Positions 916-61,590 of a stretch of 64,000 bases of DNA are shown here, piece by piece (positions within the stretch are counted from its first letter, which is position 1; each line of letters opens with the position of its first letter). The translations under genes and the position numbers were made by a program. The stretch lies in assembly GCF_055900595.2 (NCBI RefSeq), contig NZ_CM148325.1; one strand, given 5' to 3'. The notes under the pieces are model-generated. The model searched no databases, was not told the DNA's origin, and worked only from the letters and a program-made list of their open reading frames with translations.

Positions 916-1875
916 ATGGATGCTACCCGGATAACCCTTCTGGCGCTTGATTTGTTCGGCTCGCCGGGCTGGAGCGCCGATAAAGAAATACAGCGGCTGT
1001 ATGCGCTCAGTAATCATGCCGCACGCCATTACCGACGGATTATTCTTTCTAAGCGTCACGGCGGTCAGCGGGTGGTGTTAGCCCCTGATTACTTGCTCAA
1101 AACCGTACAGCGCAACATTCTTAAGAACGTCCTTTCACAATTCCCTCTTTCCCCTTTTGCTACCGCCTACCGACAGGGTCGCCCAATCGTCAGCAACGCG
1201 CAGCCTCACTGCCAACAGCCGCAGATCCTTAAACTCGATATCGAAAACTTTTTCGATAGCATTAGCTGGTTACAGGTCTGGCGTGTGTTTAGCCAGACCC
1301 AGTTGCCACGCAATGTGGTAACCATGCTGACCTGGCTTTGTTGCTATAACGACGCGTTACCGCAGGGGGCGCCAACTTCGCCTGCCATTTCCAATCTTGT
1401 GATGCGCCGTTTTGATGAGTGCATAGGGGAATGGTGTCAGGCTCGGGGAATTACCTACACCCGCTACTGCGATGACATGACCTTTTCTGGTCACTTCAAT
1501 GCCCGCCAGGTTAAAAATAAAGTATGCGGATTGTTAGCGGAGCTGGGCCTGAGCCTCAATCAACGCAAAAGTTGCCTGATAGCTGCCTGTAAGCGCCAGC
1601 AGGTAACCGGGATTGTTGTTAATCACAAGCCACAGCTTGCCCGTGAAGCGCGCCGGGCGCTGCGTCAGGAAGTACACTTGTGCCAAAAATATGGCGTTAT
1701 TTCGCATCTTAGTCATCGTGGTGAACTTGATCCTTCTGGCGATCTCCACGCACAGGCAACGGCGTATCTTTATGCTTTGCAGGGAAGAATAAACTGGTTA
1801 TTGCAAATCAATCCTGAGGATGAGGCCTTTAAACAGGCGAGGGTGAGTGTAAAGCGAATGCTGGTGGCATGGTAA
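916..1875 (+). CDS. retron-type reverse transcriptase (Ec107-like), 319 aa from ATG at 916
   Basis: Track ORF 904..1875; RT motifs QGAPTSPAISNL and YCDDMTFSG (YxDD box); GGAG Shine-Dalgarno 6 nt before the ATG at 916; position between pyrE and slmA matches the described retron-Ec107 site. Confidence 0.85.
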   Translation: MDATRITLLALDLFGSPGWSADKEIQRLYALSNHAARHYRRIILSKRHGGQRVVLAPDYLLKTVQRNILKNVLSQFPLSPFATAYRQGRPIVSNAQPHCQQPQILKLDIENFFDSISWLQVWRVFSQTQLPRNVVTMLTWLCCYNDALPQGAPTSPAISNLVMRRFDECIGEWCQARGITYTRYCDDMTFSGHFNARQVKNKVCGLLAELGLSLNQRKSCLIAACKRQQVTGIVVNHKPQLAREARRALRQEVHLCQKYGVISHLSHRGELDPSGDLHAQATAYLYALQGRINWLLQINPEDEAFKQARVSVKRMLVAW

Positions 1876-2620: not shown

Positions 2621-3079
2621 TTACTGACGACCAGAGTGACCAAAGCCGCCTTCACCGCGGTCGGTGGCGTCGAAATCTTCCACCAGATTAAATTCAGCCT
2701 GTACTACCGGAACAAAAATCATCTGGGCGATGCGTTCGCCAGGTTGAATGGTGAAGCTGTCCTGACCACGGTTCCACACGGAAATCATCAACTGGCCCTG
2801 ATAGTCAGAATCGATCAATCCTACCAGGTTACCAAGCACGATACCGTGCTTATGTCCCAATCCGGAGCGCGGCAGCATCATTGCCGCCAGTGAAGGATCG
2901 GCAATATGAATCGCCAGCCCGGTCGGAACCAGCGTAGTGTCACCCGGAGCCAGTTCTACGGCGTCGTCGAGACAGGCACGCAGGTCAAGTCCGGCAGAGC
3001 CAGAGGTGGCATAAGTCGGGAGCGGAAATTCCTTCCCAACGCGCGGGTCCAGAATCTTAACGTCGATTTTTTTCATCAT
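2621..3079 (-). CDS. dut: dUTP diphosphatase
   Basis: [36 protein letters not shown]...; 152-aa ORF. Confidence 0.95.
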
Positions 3080-8468: not shown

Positions 8469-8819
8469 AGTAAATAGCTGACTTATGGATGTGCTGGGGA
8501 TTCTATGTATTTAGCTGTGGCTTTACCATTACTTTTCCCGTTTTTGACTTAAATAGCAATTTACCCACCAATTCTTGCTGAACATCTATACTTTTTTTGT
8601 ATTTTTATGCGATTCATTGATTTCCGCAGTACGTGCAGTAAGGAATCGCGGAGCAACAGTGAAAGAATATTGTTGCTAATGATTTTATTTGATTGATTTC
8701 TTTATTGAAAAACAACGATGTGCTTAAAAATCATTCGGATCGGATTGCCGCGAAAGAAGTGATACACTAGCGCGTCAATATCAGTACGGTATCAGTATTC
8801 AGGTAGCTGTTGAGCCTGG

Positions 8820-8831
8820 GGCGGTAGCGTG
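8820..8831 (+). promoter_or_regulatory. ops element (GGCGGTAGCGTG) in the waaQ leader, expected RfaH recruitment site within a JUMPstart-like region
   Basis: Exact ops 12-mer read about 50 nt upstream of waaQ start. Confidence 0.8.
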
Positions 8832-8880: not shown

Positions 8881-9939
8881 GTGGATAAGCCATTTCGAAG
8901 AATTTTGCTCATTAAGATGCGTTTTCATGGGGATATGTTATTAACTACTCCTGTCATTAGTTCGCTGAAAAAAAATTACCCTGACGCAAAAATCGATGTG
9001 CTGCTTTATCAGGATACCATCCCGATTCTGTCTGAAAATCCAGAGATTAACGCGCTCTACGGCATAAAAAATAAAAAAGCAAAAGCCTCAGAGAAAATTT
9101 CCAACTTTTTTCATCTCATCAAGGTATTACGTGCCAATAAGTATGACCTTATCGTCAATCTTACCGATCAATGGATGGTTGCTATACTGGTTCGCTTATT
9201 AAATGCCCGTGTGAAAATTTCCCAGGATTATCATCATCGGCAGTCTGCTTTTTGGCGTAAAAGCTTCACCCATCTGGTGCCGTTGCAGGGTGGAAATGTG
9301 GTGGAAAGTAACTTATCCGTGCTGACGCCACTGGGTCTCGAATCGTTGGTGAAGCAGACAACGATGAGTTACCCGCCTGCAAGCTGGAAACGAATGCGTC
9401 GCGAACTGGATCACGCAGGTGTTGGACAAAATTATGTGGTTATCCAACCTACCGCGCGGCAAATCTTCAAATGCTGGGACAACGCCAAGTTTTCCGCTGT
9501 GATTGATGCCTTACATACACGTGGCTATGAAGTCGTTCTGACGTCCGGCCCGGATAAAGACGATCTGGCCTGCGTCAATGAAATTGCGCAGGGATGCCAG
9601 ACGCCACCAGTAACGGCGTTGGCCGGAAAGGTAACCTTCCCGGAACTTGGTGCGTTAATCGATCATGCGCAGCTGTTTATTGGCGTTGATTCCGCACCGG
9701 CGCACATTGCCGCTGCAGTTAATACGCCGCTGATATCGCTGTTTGGTGCAACAGACCATATTTTCTGGCGTCCCTGGTCAAATAACATGATTCAATTCTG
9801 GGCGGGAGATTACCGGGAAATGCCAACACGCGATCAGCGTGACCGAAATGAGATGTATCTTTCGGTTATTCCGGCGGCAGATGTCATTGCTGCTGTTGAT
9901 AAATTATTGCCATCCTCCACGACAGGTACGTCGTTATGA
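8881..9939 (+). CDS. waaQ: LPS heptosyltransferase III (GT9)
   Basis: ...MRFHGDMLLTTPVISSLKKNYPDAKIDVLLYQDTIPIL...; start ambiguous (GTG 8881 or ATG 8917). Confidence 0.85.
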   Translation: MDKPFRRILLIKMRFHGDMLLTTPVISSLKKNYPDAKIDVLLYQDTIPILSENPEINALYGIKNKKAKASEKISNFFHLIKVLRANKYDLIVNLTDQWMVAILVRLLNARVKISQDYHHRQSAFWRKSFTHLVPLQGGNVVESNLSVLTPLGLESLVKQTTMSYPPASWKRMRRELDHAGVGQNYVVIQPTARQIFKCWDNAKFSAVIDALHTRGYEVVLTSGPDKDDLACVNEIAQGCQTPPVTALAGKVTFPELGALIDHAQLFIGVDSAPAHIAAAVNTPLISLFGATDHIFWRPWSNNMIQFWAGDYREMPTRDQRDRNEMYLSVIPAADVIAAVDKLLPSSTTGTSL

Positions 9940-11060
9940 TCGTTGCTTTCTGTTTATATAAATATTTTCCCTTTGGCGGTTTGCAACGCGATTTTATGCG
10001 TATTGCTCAGACAGTTGCGGCCCGAGGGCATCATGTTCGGGTTTATGCCCAGTCATGGGAAGGCGAATGCCCTGATGTGTTTGAACTGATCAACGTGCCG
10101 GTTAAGTCGCATACCAATCACGGGCGTAACGCGGAGTATTTTGCCTGGGTGCAAAAACATTTACGCGAGCATCCGGTCGATAAAGTCGTTGGATTCAACA
10201 AAATGCCGGGGCTGGACGTTTATTATGCCGCTGATGTTTGTTATGCCGAGAAAGTGGCGCAGGAGAAAGGCTTTTTCTATCGCCTGACGTCACGTTATCG
10301 CCATTATGCCGCCTTTGAGCGGGCAACCTTTGAACAGGGCAAGCCGACACAGTTGCTGATGCTGACGGACAAGCAAATCGCCGATTTCCAGAAACATTAT
10401 CAGACTGAAGCGGAGCGTTTTCATATTTTGCCTCCGGGGATTTATCCTGACCGTAAATATAGCCAGCAGCCAGCCAATAGCCGTGAAAGCTTTCGTAAGA
10501 AAAATGGAATAACAGAACAACAATATTTATTGTTGCAGGTCGGTTCAGACTTCACGCGTAAAGGTGTCGATCGTTCCATTGAAGCACTTGCTTCGCTCCC
10601 GGATTCACTGCGCCACAACACATTGCTATATGTTGTTGGGCAGGATAAACCGCGAAAATTTGAGGCACTGGCAGAAAAACGCGGCGTGCGCAGTAATGTT
10701 CACTTCTTCTCTGGGCGTAACGATGTCTCGGAATTAATGGCGGCGGCGGATTTATTACTGCATCCTGCCTACCAGGAAGCGGCGGGAATTGTGCTGCTGG
10801 AAGCGATTACTGCAGGATTACCGGTTCTAACAACTGCTGTTTGTGGTTATGCGCATTATATTGTTGACGCGAATTGCGGCGTGGCTATTGCTGAGCCATT
10901 CCGTCAGGAAACATTGAATGAGTTTTTACGCAAAGCGTTAACGCAATCTTCATTGCGCCAGGCCTGGGCGGAAAATGCGCGACATTATGCTGATACACAA
11001 GATTTATACAGTCTGCCAGAGAAAGCGGCGGATATCATAACGGGTGGTCTGGATGGTTGA
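9936..11060 (+). CDS. waaG: LPS core glucosyltransferase I (GT4)
   Basis: 374 aa, [37 protein letters not shown]... Confidence 0.92.
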
Positions 11061-11865: not shown

Positions 11866-12882
11866 ATGAGTGCCCACTATTTTAATCCACAAGAGATGAT
11901 CAATAAGACAATCATCTTCGATGAAAGGCCAGAGGCGTCAGTGGCATCATCATTCCATGTTGCTTATGGCATTGATCAGAACTTTCTTTTTGGTTGTGGT
12001 GTTTCAATCACGTCAGTTTTGTTACATAACAACGACGTGAGTTTTGTCTTCCACGTTTTTATTGATGATATCCCTGACGCCGATATCCAGCGTTTATCCC
12101 AATTGGCGAAAAGCTATCATACCTGTATCCAGATCCATCTGGTAAATTGTGAACGGCTTAAGGTATTACCGACGACCAAAAATTGGTCTATTGCCATGTA
12201 TTTCCGTTTTGTAATTGCAGATTACTTTATTGATCAACAAGATAAGATCCTGTACCTGGATGCTGATATCGCCTGTCAGGGAACCTTAAAACCGCTGATA
12301 ACAATGGATCTTGCCAATAACGTTGCTGCTGTTGTTACTGAACGCGATGCTAACTGGTGGTCGTTACGGGCTCAAAGTCTGCAGTGTAATGAACTTGAAA
12401 AGGGTTACTTTAATTCAGGTGTCCTGTTAATTAATACACTAGCGTGGGCGCAGGAGTCCGTTTCTGCTAAAGCGATGTCGATGCTTGCTGATAAAGCCGT
12501 CGTTTCCCGTTTAACCTATATGGATCAAGATATACTAAATCTTATCCTGTTAGGGAAAGTTAAATTCATTGATGCTAAATACAATACGCAATTTAGTTTA
12601 AATTATGAATTAAAAAAATCATTTATTTGTCCAATTAATGATGAAACCGTATTAATTCATTATGTCGGCCCGACAAAACCTTGGCATTACTGGGCCGGTT
12701 ATCCAAGCGCGCAGCCATTTATCAAAGCCAAAGAAGCATCGCCATGGAAAAATGAACCGTTAATGCGGCCAATTAACTCAAATTATGCTCGTTATTGCGC
12801 TAAGCATAATTTTAAACAAAATAAACCAATTAACGGGATAATGAATTATATTTATTATTTTTATTTAAAGATAATAAAATGA
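11866..12882 (+). CDS. waaO: GT8-family LPS alpha-1,3-glycosyltransferase (outer core, WaaO/WaaI-like)
   Basis: GT8 hallmarks (YGIDQNFLFGCGVSI, YLDADI); first gene after waaP as in R1/R4 core loci. Symbol by synteny. Confidence 0.6.
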   Translation: MSAHYFNPQEMINKTIIFDERPEASVASSFHVAYGIDQNFLFGCGVSITSVLLHNNDVSFVFHVFIDDIPDADIQRLSQLAKSYHTCIQIHLVNCERLKVLPTTKNWSIAMYFRFVIADYFIDQQDKILYLDADIACQGTLKPLITMDLANNVAAVVTERDANWWSLRAQSLQCNELEKGYFNSGVLLINTLAWAQESVSAKAMSMLADKAVVSRLTYMDQDILNLILLGKVKFIDAKYNTQFSLNYELKKSFICPINDETVLIHYVGPTKPWHYWAGYPSAQPFIKAKEASPWKNEPLMRPINSNYARYCAKHNFKQNKPINGIMNYIYYFYLKIIK

Positions 12883-12898
12883 CATTGAGAAAAGTTAA

Positions 12899-13894
12899 AT
12901 GAATGAATTTATAAAAGAACGGTTTTCGTATTTAGCAGATAATAAAAAAGAAAACGTCCCAGAGCTAAATGTTTCCTACGGTATCGATAAGAATTTTTTG
13001 TATGGTGCTGGCGTTTCAATTTCTTCCGTTTTGATTAATAATTCAGATATTAATTTTGTCTTTCATGTTTTCACTGATTATGTGGATGATGATTATTTAA
13101 AGTCATTTGATGAAACAGCAAAACAATTTAATACCTCAATTATTGTATATTTAATTGACCCAAAATACTTTGCTGATCTGCCGACGTCACAGTTTTGGTC
13201 GTACGCGACATACTTCAGGGTATTGTCCTTTGAATATCTGAGTGAAAGTATTTCCACACTGCTGTATCTGGATGCCGATGTCGTTTGTAAAGGAAGTCTG
13301 AAACCTCTCACAAAAATTATATTTAAAGATGAGTTTGCTGCGGTTATTCCTGACAATGATAGTACTCAGGCGGCATGTGCAAAACGTCTTAACATTCCCG
13401 AAATGAATGGACGTTATTTCAATGCAGGCGTTATCTATGTCAATCTTAAAAAATGGCATGAAGCAAATTTGACACCGTATTTACTCACGCTTTTACGAGG
13501 GGAAACTAAATATGGCTCTCTTAAATATTTAGATCAGGATGCGTTGAATATCGCATTTAATATGAATAATATCTACCTCGCGAAGGATTTTGATACTATT
13601 TATACCCTGAAAAACGAACTTCATGATCGTAGTCATCGAAAGTATCAGCAAACCATTACCGATAAAACAGTATTGATTCACTATACAGGGATAACTAAAC
13701 CATGGCATAGCTGGGCTGGATATCCGTCTGCATCATACTTTAATATCGCGCGTGAACAATCTCCCTGGAAGAAATATCCTCTTAAAGAGGCGCGGACTGT
13801 TGCAGAAATGCAGAAACAATATAAGCATCTGTTTGCCCATGGTGAGTATATAAAAGGCATAACTTCATTAATTAAGTACAAGCTTAAGAAATAA
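12899..13894 (+). CDS. waaT: GT8-family LPS alpha-1,2-glycosyltransferase (outer core, WaaT/WaaJ-like)
   Basis: GT8 motifs (YGIDKNFLYGAGVSI, YLDADV); second GT8 before waaY. Symbol by synteny. Confidence 0.55.
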   Translation: MNEFIKERFSYLADNKKENVPELNVSYGIDKNFLYGAGVSISSVLINNSDINFVFHVFTDYVDDDYLKSFDETAKQFNTSIIVYLIDPKYFADLPTSQFWSYATYFRVLSFEYLSESISTLLYLDADVVCKGSLKPLTKIIFKDEFAAVIPDNDSTQAACAKRLNIPEMNGRYFNAGVIYVNLKKWHEANLTPYLLTLLRGETKYGSLKYLDQDALNIAFNMNNIYLAKDFDTIYTLKNELHDRSHRKYQQTITDKTVLIHYTGITKPWHSWAGYPSASYFNIAREQSPWKKYPLKEARTVAEMQKQYKHLFAHGEYIKGITSLIKYKLKK

Positions 13895-13903
13895 ATTACT
13901 CTT

Positions 13904-14596
13904 ATGATTACAAGTATACGTTATCGCGGCTTCTCATTTTATTACAAAGATAATGATAATAAATATAAAGAAATCTTTGATGAAATACTGGCCTATAATT
14001 TTAAAACAGTAAAAGTATTACGTAATATTGATGATACCAAAGTATCGTTGATTGATACGAAATATGGTCGCTATGTTTTTAAAGTCTTTGCTCCGAAAAC
14101 GAAAAGGAATGAACGTTTTTTAAAATCTTTTGTAAAAGGTGACTACTATCAGAATTTGATCGTTGAAACCGATCGTGTCAGAAGTGCAGGTCTTACTTTT
14201 CCTAATGATTTTTATTTTCTGGCTGAGCGTAAAATTTTCAACTATGCCAGTGTTTTTATCATGCTTATCGAGTATGTCGAGGGCGTAGAGCTCAATGATA
14301 TGCCGATTATTCCAGAAAATGTTAAAGCAGAAATTAAGGCTTCAATGGAAAAATTGCATGCCTTAAATATGCTATCGGGCGACCCACACCGGGGTAACTT
14401 TATCGTTAGTAAAGATGGTGTCAGGATAATTGACCTATCCGGTAAAAGCTGTACGGCAGAGCGTAAAGCTCGTGATCGTCTGGCCATGGAACGTCACCTG
14501 GGTATTGCCAACGAAATAAAAGATTATGGCTACTATTCAGTAATCTACAGAACCAAACTACGCAAATTTATTAAAAAATTAAAAGGCAAAGCGTAA
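13904..14596 (+). CDS. waaY: LPS core heptose(II) kinase WaaY
   Basis: 230 aa, MITSIRYRGFSFYYKDNDNKYKEIFDEILAYNFKTVKVLRN...; kinase-like with DPHRGNF motif. Confidence 0.85.
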   Translation: MITSIRYRGFSFYYKDNDNKYKEIFDEILAYNFKTVKVLRNIDDTKVSLIDTKYGRYVFKVFAPKTKRNERFLKSFVKGDYYQNLIVETDRVRSAGLTFPNDFYFLAERKIFNYASVFIMLIEYVEGVELNDMPIIPENVKAEIKASMEKLHALNMLSGDPHRGNFIVSKDGVRIIDLSGKSCTAERKARDRLAMERHLGIANEIKDYGYYSVIYRTKLRKFIKKLKGKA

Positions 14597-14621
14597 ACCA
14601 CACAGTCAAAACGGAACCAAC

Positions 14622-15650
14622 ATGGATTTATTAGCTGAGAGTATTACTGAAGTCGCTGTCTCTGGGGAAATTGCTAACACCGATCGTGTGTTAAATATCG
14701 CTTACGGTATTGACCGTAATTTTTTATTTGGTGCGGCAGTATCTATGCAATCAGTTGTTATGCATAACCCAGACCTTGCGGTTAAGTTTCATCTCTTTAC
14801 CGACTACATTGATGAAGATTATCTACAACGTGTTAACGCTTTTACCAGCAAAAATGCTAACGTTGAAGTAAGAATTTATAAAGTCTCCAGTGTCTTTATT
14901 GATATCTTCCCCAGCCTGAAACAGTGGTCTTATGCAACATTCTTCCGTTTAGTTGCGTTCCAGTATCTGAGTGAAACTATTGAAAATCTGTTATATATCG
15001 ATGCTGATGTCATCTGTAAAGGCTCATTAGCTGGATTGCTTGATATTAATTTTGATGGCGATAAATTCGCAGCTGTTATTAAAGATGTGCCTTTTATGCA
15101 GGAAAAACCAGCGAAGCGTCTGGCTATAGAGGGGCTTCCAGGGAATTATTTCAACGCCGGTGTAGTATATCTGCAGCTTGAAGCGTGGGCGAAAAATGAT
15201 TTTATGAATAAAGCCATTGCTATGCTGGCAAGTGACCCGCAGCACACGAAGTATAAATGCCTTGATCAGGATATTTTAAATATTCTGTTCTTTGGTCATT
15301 GTATTTTTATTAGCGGCGATTATGATTGCTTTTATGGCATTGACTATGAGTTAAAAAATAAAAGCGATGAAGATTATAAAAAGACCATTACCGATGATAC
15401 TAAGCTGATTCATTATGTTGGCGTAACGAAGCCCTGGAACGACTGGACGAATTATCCCTGCCAGAAGTATTTTAATGAGGCTTATCAAGCTTCTTGCTGG
15501 AATGATGTGGCGTTTATTCCAGCCACGAATGAAAAACAGTATCAAGTGAAATCCAGACATTTGAAAAGAAATGGTAATATTGCATCTTCATTTTACTATT
15601 TCATGCTCTATTATAGTAAGAAAATAGCGCGTAAGCATTTTTCCAAATAA
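14622..15650 (+). CDS. waaW: GT8-family LPS alpha-1,2-glycosyltransferase (WaaW-like)
   Basis: Third GT8 paralog (YGIDRNFLFGAAVSM, YIDADV) located after waaY as in R1/R4 loci. Confidence 0.5.
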   Translation: MDLLAESITEVAVSGEIANTDRVLNIAYGIDRNFLFGAAVSMQSVVMHNPDLAVKFHLFTDYIDEDYLQRVNAFTSKNANVEVRIYKVSSVFIDIFPSLKQWSYATFFRLVAFQYLSETIENLLYIDADVICKGSLAGLLDINFDGDKFAAVIKDVPFMQEKPAKRLAIEGLPGNYFNAGVVYLQLEAWAKNDFMNKAIAMLASDPQHTKYKCLDQDILNILFFGHCIFISGDYDCFYGIDYELKNKSDEDYKKTITDDTKLIHYVGVTKPWNDWTNYPCQKYFNEAYQASCWNDVAFIPATNEKQYQVKSRHLKRNGNIASSFYYFMLYYSKKIARKHFSK

Positions 15651-15681
15651 TTATTAAGACTAATCATCCAGGGATTTTTTA

Positions 15682-16455
15682 ATGAACTTGCCCATTTATA
15701 TTGTCTCACTTAAAAGAGATATTGAGCGAAGAAATAAAATAAATGATGTCTTTCATCGATTAAACATTAATTTTGATTTTTTTGATGCCATAGATGCTAA
15801 AGATCCTCAAAATAAAGAAATTATTAATGAAATGAGATTAAGTGGTGTCGGCGCAGAAATGACTGATGGAGAAATTGCTTGTACGTTAAGTCATCAGCTT
15901 ATATATCAGGATATGATAGATAAAAATATAGAATGGGCAGTCATTCTAGAGGACGATGTTATCGTCAATGAGAAATTTAAAAATTTCCTTCAATACTTTA
16001 ATCCTTCTGAAAAAGACAAGTTAAAATATAATAATTTGTATTTGCTTGGAGGTCAGAAAGGATTACATGATTATCCAGTATTGGGGCAAAGCCTTTTTAG
16101 TAAAGTTAAGGTAAGTACTTGTATTTTTCGTCGTGTTAATTTTAATAAAAATAAAATTCGTCGTACATGTTCATATTTGATGAATAACGATATGGCACTA
16201 AAGTTGCTCAAATTGACAAAGGATTATGGCACCTATCGAGCTGATAGCTGGAAGTTAATGCATCAACATAATATTATAAAAGATTTTTATTTAGACGAAA
16301 TAATATTACATCCTATTTTAAATGAGTTTAATAGTCACCTTGAAAGTGAAAGGCTTTTAATATCGGAAAAAAAACAACCCAGGACAAGGCTTCAGAAAAA
16401 AATGAAGTTTATACGTTCCTGGATAAAGGTGGCTTTTTTTTCTCTTTTGAAATGA
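15682..16455 (+). CDS. waaX: GT25-family beta-glycosyltransferase (Lic2A/LgtB-like); position of waaX (R4) or waaV (R1)
   Basis: N-terminus MNLPIYIVSLKRDIERRNKIN... resembles GT25 family; lies immediately before waaL. waaX preferred over waaV on remembered family assignment only. Confidence 0.45.
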   Translation: MNLPIYIVSLKRDIERRNKINDVFHRLNINFDFFDAIDAKDPQNKEIINEMRLSGVGAEMTDGEIACTLSHQLIYQDMIDKNIEWAVILEDDVIVNEKFKNFLQYFNPSEKDKLKYNNLYLLGGQKGLHDYPVLGQSLFSKVKVSTCIFRRVNFNKNKIRRTCSYLMNNDMALKLLKLTKDYGTYRADSWKLMHQHNIIKDFYLDEIILHPILNEFNSHLESERLLISEKKQPRTRLQKKMKFIRSWIKVAFFSLLK

Positions 16456-16489
16456 GATTGTTAATTTCAATTTATTGTGAGATATTAAC

Positions 16490-17743
16490 GTGGAAGTAAA
16501 AATTGAGCAATTTCGAAATAATAGCTGTAATTTTATTTTTTTATTATATTTAATCGGTTTGTTGTTTGTGCCAATTGATCTAAATATTACCACTAAAATA
16601 ATTAATGCTACAGGTGCATTTTCTCTTTTTTTATTAATTGTAAATAACAAGCATAATTATAATAAAAATATCATTATATTAATTCTTGGCTTACTTCTTT
16701 TGGGTGCAATGAACCTGATATGGTATGAGTTTTATAAAACAGAAGATGTAGTATATAGAAATGCTTATCGAGGCTATCTTGAGTCTGGAAAACTATTAGT
16801 ATTTAGCTCGTTGACATTTTTATTACTAAGTAAAAATAAATTCAGGCAAAATGAAAAGCTACATTTTATTTCAGCTATCTTAGTTCAAATAATCATGCTA
16901 TGTAGAGCATATTATCAAGGGATATATTTGCATGCAGACCGCATTCCCCTCTCCGCCATGAATGGGAATATTGGTCAGATGGGGGCAGCGACTATTGCGG
17001 CTTATGTGATTACATTCACTACTTTATATTCTTCAATTGTATTCATCAAAATGCAATCGAAATATAAATGGTTTCTATTTTATGCTAACTTTGCTTTAAG
17101 CTTTGCAGCAGTAATGATGACAGGAACGCGTGCGGCAATTTTCACATTCCCACTTATGATTATGGTCATATTATTTCTTCAGCATCGTGATCAAAAAGTG
17201 TTTTTATTTAAAGGATTGAGTGGTGTTTTTATATTGCTACTTGCTTGTGGTTTGATATTTAATAAGGAAATTGAGAGGCGAATTAATTCATTAAAAGCTG
17301 ATGTTATTTCATATGCTACAAAAAATAACAGTCAATCCTCGGTCGGAGCACGTTTTGCAATGGTTAATGCAGGAATTAAAGGAAGTCCTGATGGTTTTAA
17401 TTGGCAATCTCTTGAGCAGCGTGCTGAAAAGATAAAAGCATTAAGTGCAGAAAATAATATTTATAGTGGAGCTTTATTATTCCTTGATGTACATATGCAT
17501 AATGAAATTGTTGAAGCTCTTTCCACGAAAGGGAAAATTGGTCTTCTTGTTCTTATTATGTTCTATGTTGCAATGATCTACTACTGTATCCGGGAGAAAA
17601 AATATATACTTTTGGTTTTCCCTGCTTCTATTATGTTATTTGGCATTAGTGATGTCATTACGCATGCTAAACCAATACCGGCATCGTGGATTGTGTGCCT
17701 CTTCCTGTCTATATCGTTTTTGAGTAAAAAAGAACCACAATAA
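16490..17743 (+). CDS. waaL: O-antigen ligase WaaL
   Basis: 417-aa polytopic membrane protein, AT-rich, last gene of the waaQ operon; GTG start. Confidence 0.8.
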   Translation: MEVKIEQFRNNSCNFIFLLYLIGLLFVPIDLNITTKIINATGAFSLFLLIVNNKHNYNKNIIILILGLLLLGAMNLIWYEFYKTEDVVYRNAYRGYLESGKLLVFSSLTFLLLSKNKFRQNEKLHFISAILVQIIMLCRAYYQGIYLHADRIPLSAMNGNIGQMGAATIAAYVITFTTLYSSIVFIKMQSKYKWFLFYANFALSFAAVMMTGTRAAIFTFPLMIMVILFLQHRDQKVFLFKGLSGVFILLLACGLIFNKEIERRINSLKADVISYATKNNSQSSVGARFAMVNAGIKGSPDGFNWQSLEQRAEKIKALSAENNIYSGALLFLDVHMHNEIVEALSTKGKIGLLVLIMFYVAMIYYCIREKKYILLVFPASIMLFGISDVITHAKPIPASWIVCLFLSISFLSKKEPQ

Positions 17744-29555: not shown

Positions 29556-30023
29556 ATGTCAGAACAAAACAACACTGAAATGACTTTCCAGATCCAGCGT
29601 ATTTATACCAAGGATATTTCTTTCGAAGCGCCAAACGCGCCGCACGTTTTCCAGAAAGATTGGCAGCCAGAAGTTAAACTTGATCTTGATACGGCATCTT
29701 CTCAACTGGCAGATGACGTTTACGAAGTGGTACTGCGTGTTACCGTAACGGCATCCCTGGGTGAAGAAACTGCGTTCCTGTGCGAAGTGCAGCAGGGCGG
29801 TATTTTCTCCATCGCGGGTATCGAAGGCACCCAGATGGCACATTGCCTGGGCGCATACTGCCCGAACATTCTGTTCCCGTATGCTCGTGAGTGCATCACC
29901 AGCATGGTATCCCGCGGTACATTCCCGCAACTGAACCTTGCGCCGGTTAACTTCGATGCGCTGTTCATGAACTATTTGCAGCAGCAGGCTGGCGAAGGTA
30001 CTGAAGAACATCAGGATGCCTGA
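29556..30023 (+). CDS. secB: protein-export chaperone SecB
   Basis: 155 aa, [32 protein letters not shown]... Confidence 0.96.
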
Positions 30024-31042
30024 TGAACCAACGTAATGCTTCAATGACTGTGATCGGTGCCGGCTCGTACGGCACCGCTCTTGCCATTACCCTGGCAAGA
30101 AATGGCCACGAGGTTGTCCTCTGGGGCCATGACCCTGAACATATCGCGACGCTTGAACGCGACCGCTGTAACGCCGCGTTTCTCCCCGATGTGCCTTTTC
30201 CCGATACGCTCCATCTTGAAAGCGATCTCGCTACCGCACTGGCAGCCAGCCGTAATATTCTTGTCGTCGTGCCAAGCCATGTCTTTGGTGAAGTGCTGCG
30301 CCAGATTAAACCGCTGATGCGCCCTGATGCGCGGCTGGTGTGGGCGACCAAAGGGCTGGAAGCGGAAACCGGACGTTTGTTACAGGACGTGGCGCGTGAG
30401 GCGTTAGGCGATCAAATTCCGCTGGCGGTTATCTCTGGCCCAACGTTTGCGAAAGAACTGGCGGCAGGTTTACCGACGGCTATTTCGTTGGCCTCTACCG
30501 ACCAAACCTTTGCTGATGATCTTCAGCAGTTGCTGCACTGTGGTAAAAGTTTCCGCGTTTACAGCAACCCGGATTTCATTGGCGTGCAACTTGGCGGCGC
30601 GGTGAAAAACGTCATTGCCATTGGCGCGGGGATGTCCGATGGTATCGGTTTTGGTGCGAATGCGCGTACGGCGCTGATCACTCGTGGGCTGGCTGAGATG
30701 TCGCGTCTTGGCGCGGCGCTGGGGGCCGATCCTGCCACCTTTATGGGCATGGCGGGGCTGGGTGATCTGGTACTTACCTGTACCGACAACCAGTCGCGTA
30801 ACCGCCGTTTTGGCATGATGCTCGGTCAGGGCATGGATGTACAAAGCGCGCAGGAGAAGATTGGTCAGGTGGTTGAAGGCTACCGCAATACGAAAGAAGT
30901 CCGCGAACTGGCGCATCGCTTCGGCGTTGAAATGCCAATAACCGAGGAAATTTATCAAGTATTATATTGCGGAAAAAACGCGCGCGAGGCAGCATTGACG
31001 TTATTAGGTCGTGCACGCAAGGACGAGCGCAGTAGCCACTAA
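30023..31042 (+). CDS. gpsA: NAD(P)H-dependent glycerol-3-phosphate dehydrogenase
   Basis: 339 aa, [40 protein letters not shown]... Confidence 0.95.
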
Positions 31043-32516: not shown

Positions 32517-33707
32517 TTAAGCCGCATTCCCTTTCGCCATCGGAGCCAGCGCCGCAGGCAACTCTTTACCCAGCCCCTGCACCAGCGAATCTTGCGTAAT
32601 TTCACTGATCGATTTTGCGCCAGTCAGTGTCATTGCCACTTTCATCTCTTTTTCGATCAGATTCAGCAGATTTGCCACGCCCGCCTGGCCCGCCGTTGCC
32701 AGCGCATACAGGAAAGCACGACCCAGCAGTACAGTATCGGCACCGAGTGCAATCATACGCACGACATCAAGCCCGTTACGAATGCCGCTATCTGCCAGAA
32801 TGGCGATATCACCTTTCACCGCATCTGCAATAGCAGGCAACGCACGGGCAGAAGAGAGTACACCGTCCAGCTGGCGGCCACCGTGGTTAGAAACCACAAT
32901 GCCATCTGCGCCAAAACGTACCGCATCACGCGCATCTTCTGGGTCGAGGATCCCTTTGATCACCATCGGGCCATCCCAGAAATCGCGGATCCACTCAAGG
33001 TCTTTCCATGAGATAGAAGGATCGAAGTTATTCCCCAGCCAGCCGATGTAATCTTCCAGTCCGGTCGGTTTGCCGAGATAAGTCGAGATATTACCGAGAT
33101 CATGCGGACGACCATTCAGGCCCACATCCCACGCCCATTGCGGATGCGTTACCGCCTGCAAGTAGCGGCGCATTGCCGCGTTCGGGCCGCTCATTCCAGA
33201 GTGCGCATCACGGTAACGCGCACCAGGCGTTGGCATATCCACAGTGAAGACCAGAGTTGAACAGCCTGCCGCTTTTGCACGCTCCAGCGCGTTACGCATA
33301 AAGCCGCGATCGCGCAGCACATATAACTGGAACCACATCGGACGCTTGATGGCGGGGGCGACTTCTTCAATTGGGCAAACAGAAACGGTCGAGAGAGTAA
33401 ACGGAATGCCATGTGCATCCGCCGCTTTTGCGGCCTGAACTTCGCCGCGTCGCGCATACATGCCACACAAACCTACCGGACCTAGCGCCACCGGCATCGA
33501 CAATTTCTCATTAAACAGCGTCGTTTCCAGGCTTAAGTCGGACATGTTTTTCAGAATTCGCTGGCGCAGCGCCACCTCTGACAAATCTTCCACGTTGCGG
33601 CGCAGGGTGTATTCAGAATATGCCCCCCCATCCATATAGTGGAACAGGAATGGCGGCAGAATGCGTTGTGCTGCGGCGCGATAATCGCTGGCTGCGGAAA
33701 TAATCAT
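32517..33707 (-). CDS. lldD: L-lactate dehydrogenase (FMN-dependent)
   Basis: 396 aa, [38 protein letters not shown]... Confidence 0.95.
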
Positions 33708-34480
33708 GCGTTTTTCTCCCTCGAATTCTCATTATGGTCACCAGGCAGGCGGGTAATGCGTGCATGGCGAGCTTGATCTTCATCGAATCGTTTCATGGTG
33801 GTGTGAACAAAGCTAAGGTGCGCCATCATTGCTTTACGCGCCCCGTCAGCATCACCGGCAAAAATGGCGTCAATGACAGCCTGATGTTGTTCGGTCAGTT
33901 GTGAAAAAACCGGGGGCACCAGATACATCCGCTGACGGCTATGCTTCACTGAGGATTGCAAGACATCGAAGAAACCACGCATGGTTTGCAGCAACACAAT
34001 GTTATGTGAGGCTTCGGCAATCGCCAGATGAAAACGAACGTCCGCTTGTGAGGCGAGATCCGGGTCTTCGCTGAGTGTTGCTTCAAAGCAAAGCTGAATT
34101 TTCTCTTTTTCGCCAGGCGTGGCGCGCATTGCTGCATGCCACGCGGTGCTGGCTTCTATGGCGTAGCGGGCTTCCAGAATATCGAAACTGTAATCCGGAT
34201 CATCGGCCATCAGCGTTTTCAATGGCTGGACGATGTTTTGCTCCGACCATGTGTCATGACGCCAGCGAATAAACGTCCCGCCGCCGCGTCGACTGAGCAG
34301 CACACCTTCGCTCACCAGTTTCGCCAGCGCCTCGCGCAGTGAATTTCGCGACACACCGAGTTGCATTGCCAGTTGACGTTCAGCGGGCAATTTCATGCCC
34401 GCCTCCAGGTTTTTTTCATCGATCAGCGCCCGCACACGATCGGCAACCTCGTCTGACAGGCGTCTGGGTAAAACAATCAT
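33704..34480 (-). CDS. lldR: GntR/FadR-family regulator LldR
   Basis: Start at [25 protein letters not shown]; overlaps lldD start and lldP stop. Confidence 0.92.
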
Positions 34481-36135
34481 TAAGGAATCATCCACGTTAA
34501 GACATAGGCCTGAAGCGTGGTGATCACGCCCACCATACAGGTGAAGATCAGGCTGTGTTTGACAGTAAAGCGGAACAAATCAGACTCTTTGCCCACCAGT
34601 CCTACCGCCGCACAGGCGATAGCGATAGATTGCGGAGAGATCATTTTGCCGGTGACACCACCGGTGGTGTTGGCAGCAACCAGCAACAGGTCAGAAACGC
34701 CAATTTGTTGTGCGGCGGTAGCCTGCAAAGCGGCAAACAAAGCATTAGATGACGTATCCGACCCGGTCAGGAATACCCCAAGCCAGCCGAGGAACGGCGA
34801 GAAGAAGGTGAATGCATGACCGGTATGCGCCAGTGCCAGCGCCAGTGTTGATGACAGTCCGGAATAGTTCGAAATAAAGGCGAATGCCAGCACCATACCG
34901 ATGGAGTAGATAGGCAGAGCCAGTTCTTTCAGCGTGCTGCCGAAGGTGCTGATAGCGTCAGATGGTTTCATCTTCAGCCAGACAATTGAGAGCAGGGCAG
35001 CAAAAAGAATGGCGGTACCGGTAGCAGAGAACCAGTCGAACTTAAACACGGCGGCGTAAGCTGTCGCTTCGCTGACCACTGGCGGCATACGGGCAACCAG
35101 TTTATCGAGGTACGGCACCGGAATATTGATCACCCACTCATACAGCGCGCCACCCGATGCGAACAGGGCTTTAAACGGCGGGATACTCCACAGTGTTACG
35201 GTAGCGGTCAGGAACAGGAACGGTGTCCAGGCACGTAATACCTGACCCGCGGTGTAACCGGTGTGGGCCAGCGTCATATCAACCTGTGACGCCCCCAAAT
35301 CACCAAAACGGAATACGCGCACCGGCTGCCAGCGTTTGAGGAACAGCGTCAGGCAGAGCAGTGATACCAGCGAAGAGATAATGTCTGGCAGTTCCGGCCC
35401 AATGAAGTTAGAGCTGAGGTATTGAGCGATGGCAAACGAGCCGCCCGCAACCACGACCGCAGGCCAGGTTTCTTTGATACCGCGCCAGCCGTCCATAATC
35501 GCCATAATCCAGAACAGCACGATAATGGTCATAAACGGTAGCTGACGCCCCACCATCTGGCCAATCTCAAAGCTGTCGATGCCTGTTACCTGCCCGGCGA
35601 CCAGAATCGGAATACCCATCGCACCGAATGCTACTGGCGCGGTGTTAACAATCAGGCACAGCCCGGCGGCGTACAGCGGTTTAAAGCCCAGGCCGACCAG
35701 CAATGCGGCGGTAATTGCTACCGGTGCGCCAAATCCTGCGGCCCCTTCGAGGAACGCGCCGAAACAGAAACCGACGATCAGCATTTGCAGGCGCTGGTCA
35801 GGGGTTATCGAAAGAATAGACGAGCGGATGATGTCAAACTGCCCGGTTTTCACCGAGATCTTATAGACGAACACCGCTGCAATAATGATCCACGCGATGG
35901 GCCACAAACCGTAGAAGAAGCCATAAACCACCGAGGCCAGCGCGTTAGCGACCGGCATTTTATAGAACAGCAAAGCCACGGCAAGGGCGATTGCCACCGT
36001 CCACGAGGCGGCGACGTATCCTTTCAGTTTGAGCTTAATCAGCGCAAAGAAGAAAAACAGAATGGGAAGCGATGCTATCAGGCTGGAAAGCCAGATATTC
36101 CCGGCGGGATCATAGTTTTGTTGCCAGAGATTCAT
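34480..36135 (-). CDS. lldP: L-lactate permease
   Basis: Start at [29 protein letters not shown]; 551 aa. Confidence 0.93.
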
Positions 36136-36551: not shown

Positions 36552-39500
36552 TTACCACTGAATACCGGCACCGAGTGCGGCGGAGTATTCACCCTGGCTA
36601 TTGGTACTACCTTGTAATTTGTAGACCCAACGACCATTGGCGCTCACCATCGACACACCTAAAGCAACAGCCGATTCGCCGTTGTAAGTACCACCACCAA
36701 TAGAGGCCATGCTGGCTCCCGGCGTGTAAGCCTGCGGCAGACCGGTCATTGCCATTGCGGAAGCGATACCACCGCTCAACTTGCTTTCGGTTTTGGACAG
36801 TTTGTTATCCATCTCAACCATGCGCTGATCGGTGTATTGCTTCGTTTCCTGCACACTTTGCTTCAACTGTGCATAGTTCACTGCGTCGTTGTTGTTCACG
36901 CCCGCAGAAACGTTGCTGATGCGAGTCGTACCGCCATTGCCGCCACCGAGAGTGATGTTGCTGTAGTCGATAGAGCCATCAGCTTTGGTGTCGTAGCGAA
37001 CGCCACCTGCTTCGGAAGACTTCAGTTGCGAAACGTTAACCGCATCGGTGGCATTAACACCGGCAGCAACGTTGGTGATACGGCGCTGGTTGGTAGAAGA
37101 ACCCACAGAGATTGTGTTTTCTTCGTTGGCCACGGAGCCTGTACCCAGAGCGACGCTGTTGTCAGCGGCAGCAATGGATCCAGAACCAATCGCCACACTG
37201 TCTTTACCCTGGGCGTTAGCATCTACGCCATCGGTGTTGGTCTTGAAGTACTTGGTGCTACCTGTGGTTACGATATCGCCAATACCGTTCTCGATATTGG
37301 TCACGCGAGTATCCAGATTCGTCACCTGATTGTTCAGGTTAGTAATGCTCTGGGTATTCTGGGAAACCTGCGCATCCGTTACTTTCAATTGACCCACGTT
37401 GACCGCATCGGTATCAGCCGAACCAGCCGCGACGTTGGTGATCTGACGTTGACCGTCTTCGCTACCTACGGAGAATTCACCCACAGAGTTCTGCGGTGCA
37501 TCCATGTTGTAGGCGGTGTAGCCAGTTTGTGCGCCACGGGTAGTTTGAGAACCATTACCCATTGCAATGCTGTTTGCATGGTTTGCACGCGCGTTGCTAC
37601 CGATAGCAATACCGTTAATCGCATCTGCCAGAACTAAAGTGTTCAGGCCGATACCAATACCTGCATTACCATTAACGATGGTTTTTGCGCCCATTGCCAG
37701 CGAGTCTTCACCGATTGCCAGTGAGTCTTCAGCCGTTGAATTGGCGTGATAGTATTTGGTTGGCGTGGTGGCTACTGCACCAATGGCATTCTGCAACTGG
37801 CGAACCGTAACGGCGTCATGGGCTTCAGAACCATCGGCAACATTGATGATTTGACGATATTTACCATCGTCACCGATCGACAATGCGCCAAGCAGTTCAC
37901 CGTCAGTTGTGTCATAACCAATCACAACACCTTCTTCCGATACGCTGGTGTCACGAGAACCTTTAACTATTAAACGGCTGGAAACGGAACTGCTACCCAG
38001 AGCGATACCTGTATCAACGTTGCTGTAACTGTCCTGACCGATGGCTACACTGCTGGCACGAGAGGCAACAGCGTTATAACCCACAGCGGTAGCACCAATA
38101 CCTGAAGCGCTGGCATCGTTGAATGCTAAGCCGTTGTCGTTGGTACGCACATAGTTAATACCCGCGCCATTTTCTTCGATGTAGGTTTCACTGGTGTTAC
38201 CGGCAAGCTGATTGATGACTTCGCTGTTCTGCTGGATCAGCATATTGGTGTTAAACAGCTGAGAACCGTTCACTGCATCGGTGCTACCTTCACCAATGTT
38301 ACCATCAGCAACGTTTGTGATAATGCTGGCCTTGCCGTCATGACTGGCGTTGTAAGCCCCTTCGCCGTTATTGGCGGTCGCATCCCACAGCAGCGCGTTC
38401 TCATCAAGCGCATCCAGAGCGTCACCGACATTGTTGTACTCGGCATTCGCAATGGTGTAAGTCGGCGCAGTGATAGTACCGTCAGCGTTAACTTCTGCAT
38501 CACCGCCCAGAGCATCTGCGATATATTTATTAGTGGTATAGAGTTGTGAGCCGTTAATCGCGTCGCTGCTGGTGGCAGAGATTGCACCATTTGCGACGTT
38601 AGTAATCTTACTGGCAGTGTTATCTACCCCACGACCGGCGCTGAATGCACCAGCACCGTCATTGGCTGTTGCATCCCAGAGCAGGGCGTCATCCAGTGTG
38701 GTATCGATCGCTTCCAGTGCGTCACCAACGTTGCTGTAACTGCCGCCAGCGATGGCATAAGTCGGTGTGGTGATACTGCCGTCCGCATTCACCACAGCGT
38801 TCCCGCCCAGAGCATCGGCAATGTAGTCACTAACGCCATAAAGTTGAGAACCATTAATAGCGTCGCTACTGGTGGATGAGACTGCACCGTTTGCAACATC
38901 AGTGATTACACTGGGATCATTATTAATGCCGTGTTTGGCGCTGAATTTGCCTGCGGTTGTATCCCAGAGCAGAGCATCACCGAGAGAATCACTAAATGAA
39001 GTGTTAATCGCAGCCAGAGCATCCCCGACGCTAGTGTAGTCAGTGCCGCCAATACTATAGGTTGGCCCGGTTAATATACCTGTATCGCTAATATCAGCCC
39101 CACCACCCAGATAGGACGTGAATGAATCAGCCAAACCGTAAAGTTGTGAGCCATTAATGGCGTCAGTGCTGTCAGAGGAGACTATGCCAGCTTGTACGTT
39201 GCTGATTTTGTTGGCGGCGTTAGTGCCGTGTGCAGCGGTGAATGCGCCTGCGGCGTCGTCCCATTTCAGGGCGTCTTCACCGAGGTTAGTCACCGTATCA
39301 GTCAGGTTAGTGATATTGGTGGTGTTGGTCGCCACATCGTCCTTGGTCGCTTTCAGCTGAGAACCATTAACGGCGTCGGTGCTGGTGTCAGAGAGCTCGC
39401 CAGCGGTGACGTTAGTGATTTTGTTGGTGGCGTTGGTGCCGTGTGCAGCGGTGAATGCGCCTGCGGCATCGTCCCATTTCAGGGCGTCTTCACCGAGGTT

Positions 39501-41363
39501 AGTCACCGTATCAGTCAGGTTAGTGATGTTGGTGGTGTTAGTTGCCACGTTATCGTTAGTGGTTTTCAACTGAGAACCGTTAACGGCGTCGGTGCTGGTG
39601 TCAGAGAGCTCGCCAGCGGTGACGTTAGTGATTTTGTTGGTGGCGTTGGTGCCGTGTGCAGCGGTGAATGCGCCTGCGGCATCGTCCCATTTCAGGGCGT
39701 CTTCACTAAGGTCAGTCACCGTATCAGTCAGGTTAGTGATATTGGTGGTGTTGGTCGCCACATCGTCCTTGGTCGCTTTCAGCTGAGAACCATTAACGGC
39801 GTCGGTGCTGGTGTCAGAGAGCTCGCCAGCGGTGACGTTAGTGATTTTGTTGGTGGCGTTGGTGCCGCGTGCAGCGGTGAATGCGCCTGCGGCATCGTCC
39901 CATTTCAGGGCGTCTTCACCGAGGTTAGTCACCGTATCAGTCAGGTTAGTGATATTAGTGGTGTTGCCAGCCACTTCGCTCGTCAGGTTAGTGATGTTGG
40001 TGGTGTTTGCCGCCACATCGTCCTTGGTCGCTTTCAGCTGAGAACCGTTGACGGCGTCGGTGCTGGTGTCAGAGAGGTCGCCAGCGGTGACATTGGTGAT
40101 TTTGCTAGTGGCGTTGTTGCCATGGGCAGCGCTGTATTTGCCATTGGTTTGGTCCCATTGCAGAGTGTTTTCATCAAGTACAGTGAGCGCATCGCCAACG
40201 TTATTTTTGTTACCATTTTTTAAGTTGTAGGCGGGGGCTTTAACTGTACCGTCGTCAACGTTTACCGATGCGCCTCCACCCAGTCGTTTTGCTACCGAGT
40301 CGCTGATGGCATAAAGCTGCGAGCCATTAATGGCGTCATTGCTGTCAGCTTTGATGGTGCCATTTTTCACATTCACGATCTTGCGTTTTAATGAGTCATT
40401 ACCGACAGAAACGCTATCGTCCAGATCCGCAATCGAACCTGCCCCCAACGCGACGGCGTTAATACCGTTGGCGCTGGTATTACTACCAAGCGCAAGACTA
40501 TTATCGCCCGTGACAACACTGGTTTTACCTAAAGCAATAGAGTTTAAGCCACTCGATTGGCTACCATTACCCAGAACGATAGCATCTGTACCATTAGCTT
40601 TGTTGCCCTGACCTATGGCAATTTCGCTATCTGCCAAAGCCTGGCTGCCATTGCCCAATACGATAGTATTGGTTTTATCGGCAAGGCTCCCGGAGCCCAG
40701 CGCCATGCTATTAGTCCCTTTTGCCTTCGCATTATTGCCAATGGCGGTAGCATTTTCAGCGGCTTCGGTGTTAGTGCCCATCGCGATGGAGTCCGTTCCT
40801 GATGCATTTGCCAATCGTCCTAATGCAAGAGCATTAGCAGCACTTGCTACCGTATCTTTGCCCAACGCCATGGCACCTTCACCTTTAGCTTGAGCAGAAT
40901 TCCCCAGTGCAAGTGTATAATCGCTGGTCGCTTTAGCTGCACTGCCGATGGCGATAGCTCGGCTGCCCGTTGATACCGTTGATTGCCCTAAGCCAACCGA
41001 TCTTTCTCCTGATGAGTTACTTGAGAAGCCAATTGCCGTACTGCCCACCCCGGCGGTCGAACCTATTCCTACCGCAACACTTCCTGTATTCTCTGTTCCT
41101 GAACCCTTTGGCTCTGATGATGCGACAGCACCTTTACCAATGGCAATCCAGTCATTACTGAGTGGCGTTGCCTCTGCGCTTTTACCACCGTCAAGTGAAA
41201 CCGAAGCATTGGCCCCAACGGGTGAGAGTAGCCCACCCGCAACCAGCGCGGAAATTAACAGCTTACTACGCCCGCTCTTTTTTCCACGACTCTTCGCCGT
41301 TTCGCTGGCAACGCTATAGCTGCCCGTCGCTGGATTCCAGATAACTTTAAAAATTTTGTTCAT
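36552..41363 (-). CDS. trimeric autotransporter adhesin (YadA-like; UpaG/EhaG/SadA family), 1603 aa
   Basis: N-terminal extended signal peptide [21 protein letters not shown]...; long repetitive Ser/Thr/Asn/Gly-rich passenger with NGSQL-type head/neck motifs; C-terminal YadA-type anchor ending ...[36 protein letters not shown]. Confidence 0.85.
39166..40060. repeat. tandem array of about 4 copies of a 213-bp (71-aa) unit inside the adhesin gene
   Basis: Plus-strand artefact ORFs start at 39379, 39592 and 39805 (213-nt spacing) with near-identical translations; the adhesin shows repeated [71 protein letters not shown] blocks. Confidence 0.85.
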
Positions 41364-43528: not shown

Positions 43529-44116
43529 TTACTTTTGAAAGGCTTTTTTTAAGCTGATTTTGGAAATCAGCTCTGTCAGTGAAAGGACCATTGTTGATCG
43601 CACAGCCTGTTGGTAACGCTGAATTTGCATTGCATACAAACTGGAGTCTGCGGGTTCAAACTGTGGCGGCGGTGGTAACGCCGCCACACAGTGCAGCTCA
43701 CCAAAGGGGCCAAGAATTTCGTCGTCGGTAAAGGCGTACTCATTGCCGTCGTGATTTAGTTCTTCACGCAATGCCATCAGCAGTTCCGCATCTTCGTATT
43801 CATGGCGGTTAATGACACCCAACCCGTAAATGAGTTTTAAACGCACAGAAAGATCGCCCAGCGGGCCATCGCCGTCGAGTAACGGTTCTACAGCATACTT
43901 CACCGCGTAATCGTCTTTGCGGAATACCTGAAGCACCAGAAGATTTACCGCCTCGGTCAAAAGCTCGACGGCGGTAATCAGAAAGCTTCGCACGGTTTTG
44001 CCAGCATTCAGACGCTCAAGCACACGGTTTTCAAAGGCCTGGGTTTGTTCCATTGTTGCCTGCATATCTGACAATCTGTTATTCGGGCGCAGGGAGTCCT
44101 GCGCCTGGTCCACCAT
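43529..44116 (-). CDS. mtlR: mannitol operon repressor MtlR
   Basis: 195 aa, [43 protein letters not shown]... Confidence 0.92.
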   Translation of the reverse strand: MVDQAQDSLRPNNRLSDMQATMEQTQAFENRVLERLNAGKTVRSFLITAVELLTEAVNLLVLQVFRKDDYAVKYAVEPLLDGDGPLGDLSVRLKLIYGLGVINRHEYEDAELLMALREELNHDGNEYAFTDDEILGPFGELHCVAALPPPPQFEPADSSLYAMQIQRYQQAVRSTMVLSLTELISKISLKKAFQK

Positions 44117-45299: not shown

Positions 45300-45762
<463 letters not shown>

Positions 45763-57234: not shown

Positions 57235-57250
57235 AATTTCAGGAGGCAAT

Positions 57251-61504: not shown

Positions 61505-61590
61505 CAGGCTTGATAAGACGCGTTAAGCGTCGCATCAGGCAATGTGCACCCTACGTTGGATGCGGCGCGAGCGCCTTATCCAACCTACGG
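61505..61590. repeat. REP/BIME element overlapping the stop codon of the downstream GH127 gene
   Basis: aggcttgataagacgcgttaagcgtcgcatcaggca and ggatgcggcgcgagcgccttatccaacctacgg. Confidence 0.65.

Follow-up and report, generated by a model that had tools for sequence, protein, structure and literature searches.

Intercistronic GC-rich stem-loops, such as REP-type elements and decay-barrier hairpins, set differential expression within operons. Distances between neighbouring genes have been catalogued: in E. coli 707 of 2,987 unidirectional pairs (24%) lie between -8 and +6 nt, the distribution of distances peaks at -4, next at -1 and next at -8, longer overlaps are rare, and in 1,695 species the peaks at -4 and -1 recur throughout the genome (PMC10666635). 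The range between -8 and +6 nt is treated there as typical for termination-reinitiation, and pairs encoding subunits of heteromeric complexes form a class that is enriched among overlapping pairs (PMC10666635). Of the native E. coli pairs at -4 which were tested experimentally, four out of five were coupled, bioBF being the uncoupled one (Huber et al. 2019, PMC6728339), and coupling drops steeply with a stop-start separation of 14-38 nt (PMC6728339, PMC10666635). A restart by bidirectional scanning is described for the coat and lysis genes of phage fr, which overlap by 34 nt (Adhin and van Duin 1990, as summarised in PMC10666635). For the position of start codons and for N-terminal proteoforms the closest resources are tetracycline ribosome profiling (TetRP, PMC4909307) and the TRAINSPOTTER N-terminomics of 2026 (PMC13245402).

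The window, by which we mean the whole stretch of 64,000 nt analysed here, is E. coli chromosome and is colinear with K-12 at approximately 3.75-3.816 Mb. A 2.2-kb query around coaBC/dut gave matches in 5,424 of 5,426 complete E. coli genomes, with 100% identity to a handful of them and 95-99% to the remainder. Gene calls were obtained by mapping the PGAP annotation of the near-identical strain E400634 (NZ_CM128600.1) onto the window, with the curated record of K-12 MG1655 as a second annotation for comparison; identity between the window and NZ_CM128600.1 is 99.9% over 1-38083 and 98.4-98.9% past 38083. An offset due to a repeat-number difference in a YadA-like adhesin was corrected before the genes were mapped, and each mapped CDS was checked for its start codon, stop codon and open frame, all of which were intact except in yiaY. 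In that gene (53913-55032, plus strand) a 32-bp deletion near 54385 relative to K-12 and E400634 shifts the frame and splits it into two ORFs, making it a probable pseudogene. The adhesin gene (36552-41363, minus strand; 1,603 aa) is absent from K-12 at this position and differs from the E400634 copy (1,525 aa) by 234 nt in the internal-repeat region. Between pyrE and slmA, separated by only 36 nt in K-12, the window carries a gene for a 319-aa reverse transcriptase (916-1875, plus strand), which matches the PADLOC model RT_Ec107-like (retron) with an E-value of 6.9e-133 and has non-coding DNA upstream of it (about 620-915); retron-Ec107 is reported from exactly this site, pyrE/ttk.

Among the 41 co-directional adjacent pairs of complete genes in the window exactly eight overlap, all of them co-directional neighbours (Table 1). 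The preliminary description had listed these eight overlaps with their lengths, and both the mapped PGAP calls and the curated K-12 MG1655 record, which gives identical overlap lengths at all eight pairs, bear it out; the comparison with curated K-12 starts that it had proposed was run, and the starts sit where it had placed them, so that nothing in the curation refutes it. Three convergent overlaps are also present, namely waaH/yibQ (14 nt), yiaV/yiaU (4 nt) and hicB with a hypothetical gene (4 nt), and are irrelevant to coupling. The last of these lies between aldB and yiaW in a stretch absent from K-12 (57049-57972), which comprises a hicA/hicB toxin-antitoxin and, on the opposite strand, the gene that overlaps hicB convergently, encoding 104 aa with no Pfam match.

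Table 1. Overlapping junctions, start codons and hairpin considered in this study, with positions in the window.
Feature	Position	Strand	Description	Overlap in K-12
coaBC/dut	3057-3079	-	23-nt overlap, ATGATGAAAAAAATCGACGTTAA	same
dut start ATG1	3077-3079	-	first of tandem starts; overlap of 23 nt
dut start ATG2	3074-3076	-	second of tandem starts; overlap of 20 nt
waaQ/waaG	9936-9939	+	4-nt overlap, ATGA	same
waaG/waaP	11053-11060	+	8-nt overlap, ATGGTTGA	same
secB/gpsA	30021-30025, overlap at 30023	+	1-nt overlap, TGATG	same
lldR/lldD	33704-33707	-	4-nt overlap, ATGA	same
lldP/lldR	34478-34482, overlap at 34480	-	1-nt overlap, TAATG	same
mtlR start Met22	44051-44053	-	ATG 63 nt downstream of the annotated start; N-terminomics, homologues
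mtlR start Met18	44063-44065	-	ATG 51 nt downstream of the annotated start; TetRP, N-terminomics, homologues
mtlD/mtlR hairpin	44086-44105	-	GGCGCAGG-ACTC-CCTGCGCC, dG -15.9 kcal/mol; 9 nt after the mtlD stop, inside the annotated mtlR 5' end
mtlD/mtlR (annotated start)	44114-44118, overlap at 44116	-	1-nt overlap, TAATG	same
selA/selB	51879-51882	+	4-nt overlap, ATGA	same

The overlaps were also said to be ordinary for E. coli operons, and this holds. Six of the eight are of the codon-sharing type ATGA or TAATG/TGATG, and waaG/waaP belongs to the common 8-nt class; the overlap pattern is not a matter of chance, given that junctions like these six make up the two sharp peaks of the genome-wide distribution, at -4 and -1, and that -8 is the third peak. 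Distances between -8 and +6 nt are found for 11 of the 41 pairs (27%), which, set against 24% genome-wide, makes the window typical, with no enrichment. The overlaps are, moreover, already known and catalogued, since supplementary file 3 of the published E. coli distance table (PMC10666635) contains all eight pairs (-23, -4, -8, -1, -1, -4, -1 and -4). None of them is marked in that table as subunits of a heteromeric complex, so that the eight fall outside the class enriched among overlapping pairs. In its cross-species table CoaBC/Dut are neighbours in 450 genomes and the SelA/SelB pair in 254, the typical distance being -4 for both (PMC10666635).

One further overlap of K-12, the 1-nt overlap waaB/waaO, is missing in the window strain because the waa outer core differs: at 11866-17743 (plus strand) it consists of waaO, GT8, waaY, GT8, GT25 and O-antigen ligase genes, as against waaS, B, O, J, Y, Z and U in K-12. 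At the waaQ start (8881, plus strand) no overlap is involved; PGAP calls a GTG start and a protein of 352 aa, as against 344 aa in curated K-12, and a JUMPstart element (8793-8831) lies just upstream of the gene.

Overlaps of this kind could in principle be artificial, produced where a gene caller prolongs an ORF as far as its first possible start codon. This is probably true of mtlR, and the longest ORFs of waaP and lldR do begin elsewhere than the curated genes, with GTG codons at 11044 and 34495 in place of the curated ATG codons at 11053 and 34480. As an account of the whole set, however, it is most improbable: the curated starts are not those of the longest ORFs for coaBC, waaP, lldR and lldP, experiments confirm the first dut ATG, the sequence shared by coaBC and dut does not vary between genera, and the -4 and -1 peaks recur genome-wide across 1,695 species. 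The claim that overlaps help to fix start codons stands for waaP and lldR, where the curated ATG is preferred over a longer ORF, and fails for mtlR and, because two starts are used there, for dut. Among the remaining genes, Table S2 of TetRP gives no shifted start for gpsA, lldR, selB and waaP (PMC4909307), and a search of the TRAINSPOTTER supplement for gpsA, lldR, lldD, selB and waaG returned no entries, which is neutral (PMC13245402).

It was further suggested in the preliminary description that the junctions are translationally coupled. Seven of the annotated junctions (-1, -1, -1, -4, -4, -4 and -8) lie within the range between -8 and +6 nt, while coaBC/dut (-23 or -20) lies outside it, as does mtlR when measured from its experimentally supported start (+50). 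The seven resemble the termination-reinitiation pairs of PMC6728339 and PMC10666635 in being co-directional operon neighbours with ATGA, TAATG or TGATG motifs or the -8 class, with the difference that the experimentally tested set in those studies consists of other pairs than these eight. Judging from such other E. coli pairs, a ribosome ending the upstream gene would restart on the adjacent AUG without leaving the mRNA. The one indirect hint of coupling comes from secB/gpsA, where mutations in secB are polar on gpsA (PMC4257090), a polarity that could be transcriptional. A Shine-Dalgarno motif within the upstream gene is frequent in coupled pairs but is no requirement. Pairing with the 3' end of 16S rRNA is strong upstream of lldD (anti-Shine-Dalgarno duplex dG -8.5), waaP (-7.1) and selB (-6.4), weak for gpsA (-4.1), waaG (-3.9), dut (-3.7) and lldR (-3.1), and practically nil for annotated mtlR (-0.1); the overlapping genes are not separated in Shine-Dalgarno strength from the other 33 genes (mean -4.6 vs -5.8 kcal/mol, Mann-Whitney p 0.33). 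Sequence alone cannot demonstrate coupling for any of the eight pairs, and coupling may reasonably be inferred, and only inferred, for the seven short overlaps.

At the longest of the overlaps the coaBC frame ends in ...TRYDEKNRR* and the dut frame begins with MMKKIDVK, the K-12 record now annotating the first dut ATG (152 aa, 23-nt overlap). In TetRP the signal is 100/87/69 at ATG1 and 3/37/46 at ATG2, and a move of the start to the first ATG was proposed there relative to the 2006 annotation, with a matching N-terminal peptide being found (PMC4909307); in the N-terminomics of 2026 both N-termini were detected as initiation-derived (PMC13245402). Both ATG codons are thus used and the overlap is 23 or 20 nt. 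As both starts are already entries in these datasets, nothing new is added here for dut itself. The start MMKKI is found in 112 of the 120 closest Dut protein clusters, and the sequences of the Dut PDB deposits begin with MMKK. The 23-nt overlap is the same in the gene calls of Salmonella, Cronobacter, Pantoea and Erwinia, and CCGTTATGATGAAAAAAATCGACGTTAA is invariant from Escherichia to Erwinia apart from a single C-to-A change in Pantoea which is synonymous in both frames. Such conservation is what dual coding would be predicted to leave in the sequence.

This overlap lies outside the reinitiation range of PMC10666635, and the nearest described likeness is the phage fr coat/lysis pair: the dut start is located about 20 nt upstream of the coaBC stop, and a terminating ribosome would likewise have to move backwards, by 20 nt, which exceeds the range shown to work in native E. 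coli pairs (PMC10666635). Unlike in the phage pair, dut starts within open, A-rich mRNA, to which ribosomes could be recruited directly. AAA codons directly follow the start and the surrounding mRNA is A-rich; the region is unusually unstructured, with 197 of 200 shuffles folding at least as well (z +1.81). The dut start therefore looks like one that ribosomes can enter directly, initiation on it may be largely independent of coaBC translation, and we regard a dependence of dut on that translation as not required. A consensus scan of the 3' part of coaBC on the minus strand revealed no promoter-like site for dut, a kind of scan which cannot exclude one.

A run of seven A residues (3063-3069, minus strand) is found within the overlap, and it may be asked whether +1 slippage on this run carries ribosomes from the coaBC frame into that of dut, yielding a CoaBC-Dut fusion. 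On the sequence GAA AAA AAU tRNA-Lys could slide downstream by one base and pair anew in the dut frame, and six genera share the run without a change. The run is nevertheless fully accounted for by the C-terminus of CoaBC and the conserved Lys-Lys codons of Dut taken together, the region is unstructured and offers no stimulatory structure, and no fusion product is reported in the literature examined; the one database entry of 156 aa that starts in the CoaBC frame (MVTRYDEK) looks like an artefact of gene calling or sequencing. We give slippage hardly any credence, and prefer the reading in which dut is simply initiated at its two ATG codons.

The mtlD/mtlR junction is the one at which annotation and start-site experiments disagree. 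The annotated mtlR ATG and the mtlD stop have one A in common, and Shine-Dalgarno pairing is absent at this ATG. TetRP gives 0/0/0 at this ATG and 0/25/23 at +51 nt, Met18 being listed as the new start (PMC4909307, Table S2), and in N-terminomics only the Met18 and Met22 N-termini of MtlR were found, the database start being flagged as not detected (PMC13245402). Both shorter starts are therefore already entries in these datasets, and what is added here is comparative evidence that the part upstream of them behaves as a non-coding spacer. The alignments with Vibrio MtlR and with the paralogue YggD begin at approximately residue 20 of the E. coli protein, and the annotated MtlR starts of Cronobacter, Siccibacter, Buttiauxella, Trabulsiella and Erwinia are no more than a few codons away from Met18/Met22. 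From Met18 on the protein hardly varies between genera, while its first 14 or so residues vary freely, and in the conservation profile the 20 nt preceding Met18 are nearly invariant.

For the comparison at the nucleotide level 80 Enterobacteriaceae mtlR loci were fetched, of which 77 were usable. Variability by codon position is 0.71/1.04/0.73 bits in mtlR codons 2-14, without the third-position excess, as compared with 0.06/0.04/0.31 bits after Met18 and 0.53/0.69/1.09 bits in the last ten mtlD codons; going by these profiles, codons 2-14 do not evolve like protein-coding sequence. In 63 of the 77 loci the mtlD stop and the Met18 ATG are separated by exactly 50 nt. MtlR would accordingly be synthesised mainly from Met18 and Met22, Met18 probably being the ancestral and main start and Met22 a second one, and in the clade from Escherichia to Kosakonia the spacer may simply happen to be in frame and open, hence its annotation as coding. 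The ATG in the mtlD/mtlR overlap is thus probably not the main start that the cell uses. This bears on the preliminary description taken as a whole, that is, on the view that all eight overlaps mark true and unique starts and that all downstream genes are coupled. That view draws on the concurrence of the curated K-12 annotation for all eight, on the coupling of the -4, -1 and -8 classes in other E. coli pairs and on the ATG overlapping the mtlD stop being kept in 75 of the 77 loci. We consider it clearly improbable, since the annotated mtlR start lacks both a TetRP signal and an N-terminal peptide where Met18/Met22 are supported, dut uses two starts, the 23-nt overlap exceeds the typical termination-reinitiation range, and bioBF, one of the five -4 pairs of Huber et al., is uncoupled.

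An alternative would have mtlR yield two kinds of product, a long MtlR of 195 aa made by reinitiation after mtlD, in an amount that would scale with operon expression, and short forms made from Met18/Met22 by independent initiation, with the hairpin described below gating the balance. The spacer is in phase and carries an in-frame ATG overlapping the mtlD stop in 75 of the 77 loci, in-frame stops upstream of Met18 are found in none of 76 unique sequences, where the other two frames are interrupted by stops in 46 and 33 of the sequences, and both short N-termini are detected. The absence of stops is, however, weak evidence of translation, because a column shuffle leads one to expect an in-frame stop in only 4.1 of 62 sequences, and the ATG is in many loci partly forced by the last mtlD codon and a TGA stop. 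The 0/0/0 signal of TetRP at the overlapping ATG, the missing coding periodicity of codons 2-14 and the related genera that lack the in-frame ATG yet have a hairpin also speak against two products. The MtlR long-form peptide MVDQAQDTLRPNNR is absent in proteomics, which is negative evidence only, the mtl operon was uninduced in the start-site datasets, and the paper on the E. coli MtlR structure is silent on whether residues 1-17 are ordered. On balance we hold this alternative to be unlikely, though some long MtlR may be made by coupling as a minor form, and we retain synthesis mainly from Met18 and Met22 as the preferred reading.

In this reading, the 50 nt after mtlD would separate the two cistrons as a spacer, within which a GC hairpin is conserved. 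Across the loci the invariant nucleotides of the spacer form GGCGCAGG-N4-CCTGCGCC, and the hairpin is present in both the minimum-energy and the centroid folds. In 52 ungapped sequences its pairing is kept in 99% of cells, as against 31-51% in controls with a slid 3' partner. Six of the eight pairs never vary in the main set; at the other two there are compensatory changes, with 15 cells altered on both sides, and the covariation score is higher than in any of 500 shuffles. The stem is GGCGCGGG/CCCGCGCC in Kosakonia, GGCGCGGA/TCCGCGCC in Trabulsiella and GGCGCAGA/TCTGCGCC in one Lelliottia, and in the Pluralibacter clade it is wholly different and fully complementary (GGTGCTGCTC/GAGCAGCACC). 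Changes in the hairpin alter amino acids but keep the pairing, so that selection acts on the RNA. A hairpin is present as well in Cronobacter and Siccibacter, whose spacer of 48 nt is devoid of in-frame ATG codons (the mtlR frame of Cronobacter is closed by a TGA right behind the mtlD stop), and a GC hairpin is also kept between mtlD and the Met18-type start in Erwinia toletana (66 nt) and Buttiauxella (192 nt). The compensatory changes thus argue that the hairpin is a conserved structured RNA.

As an intrinsic terminator the element was considered and rejected, the stem being followed by CGAAUAACAGAUUGUCAGAU with no U run. No Rfam family matched window positions 43900-44300 in a search with E-values up to 10. 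Term-seq data contain no RNA 3' end at the hairpin, which is uninformative given that the operon was uninduced in those conditions. The same data include a very strong antisense 3' end inside mtlR (K-12 3775997/3775998, minus strand; approximately window 43690) with a GC hairpin, GGCGGCGGTGGTAACGCCGCCAC, which lies downstream of the convergent gene yibT. Repeated elements are found elsewhere in the operon, in the mtlA/mtlD intergenic region (45332-45752), and a match to naRNA4, an Rfam family derived from REP, is located between yiaT and the GH127 gene (61507-61585).

Compared with REP-type and decay-barrier hairpins, the mtlD/mtlR stem is similarly a stable GC stem located directly past the upstream stop, lacks a U tract and covaries, and it precedes a regulator gene which is expected to be needed at a lower level than the enzymes. 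It differs from REP-type hairpins in not matching naRNA4, the one REP-derived Rfam family with a hit in another part of the window, and in E. coli it lies inside an annotated CDS. Its most likely role would be to set the ratio of mtlD to mtlR expression, for example as a barrier to mRNA decay or as a block to ribosomes reading on. We lean, by a small degree, towards the combined view that MtlR is made mainly from Met18/Met22 and that the hairpin of the 50-nt spacer is an undescribed cis-regulatory RNA setting the ratio of the repressor to the mannitol enzymes.

In conclusion, we find it very probable that the junctions in this window are ordinary, known overlaps, that dut has two starts and that mtlR is translated mainly from Met18/Met22 after a spacer containing a hairpin. 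The overlaps themselves are textbook features of little weight, and novelty, of a modest kind, is confined to the comparative evidence for the hairpin and for the shorter MtlR. For annotation the lesson is that a start codon overlapping an upstream stop is a good guide and not a proof: the starts chosen by overlap agree with curation in eight cases out of eight and clash with start-site experiments in one of them, mtlR. Those who express or model the 'full-length' MtlR of 195 aa should know of the shorter starts, and for the biology of the mannitol operon the mtlR case points to a small conserved hairpin that may tune the synthesis of its repressor.
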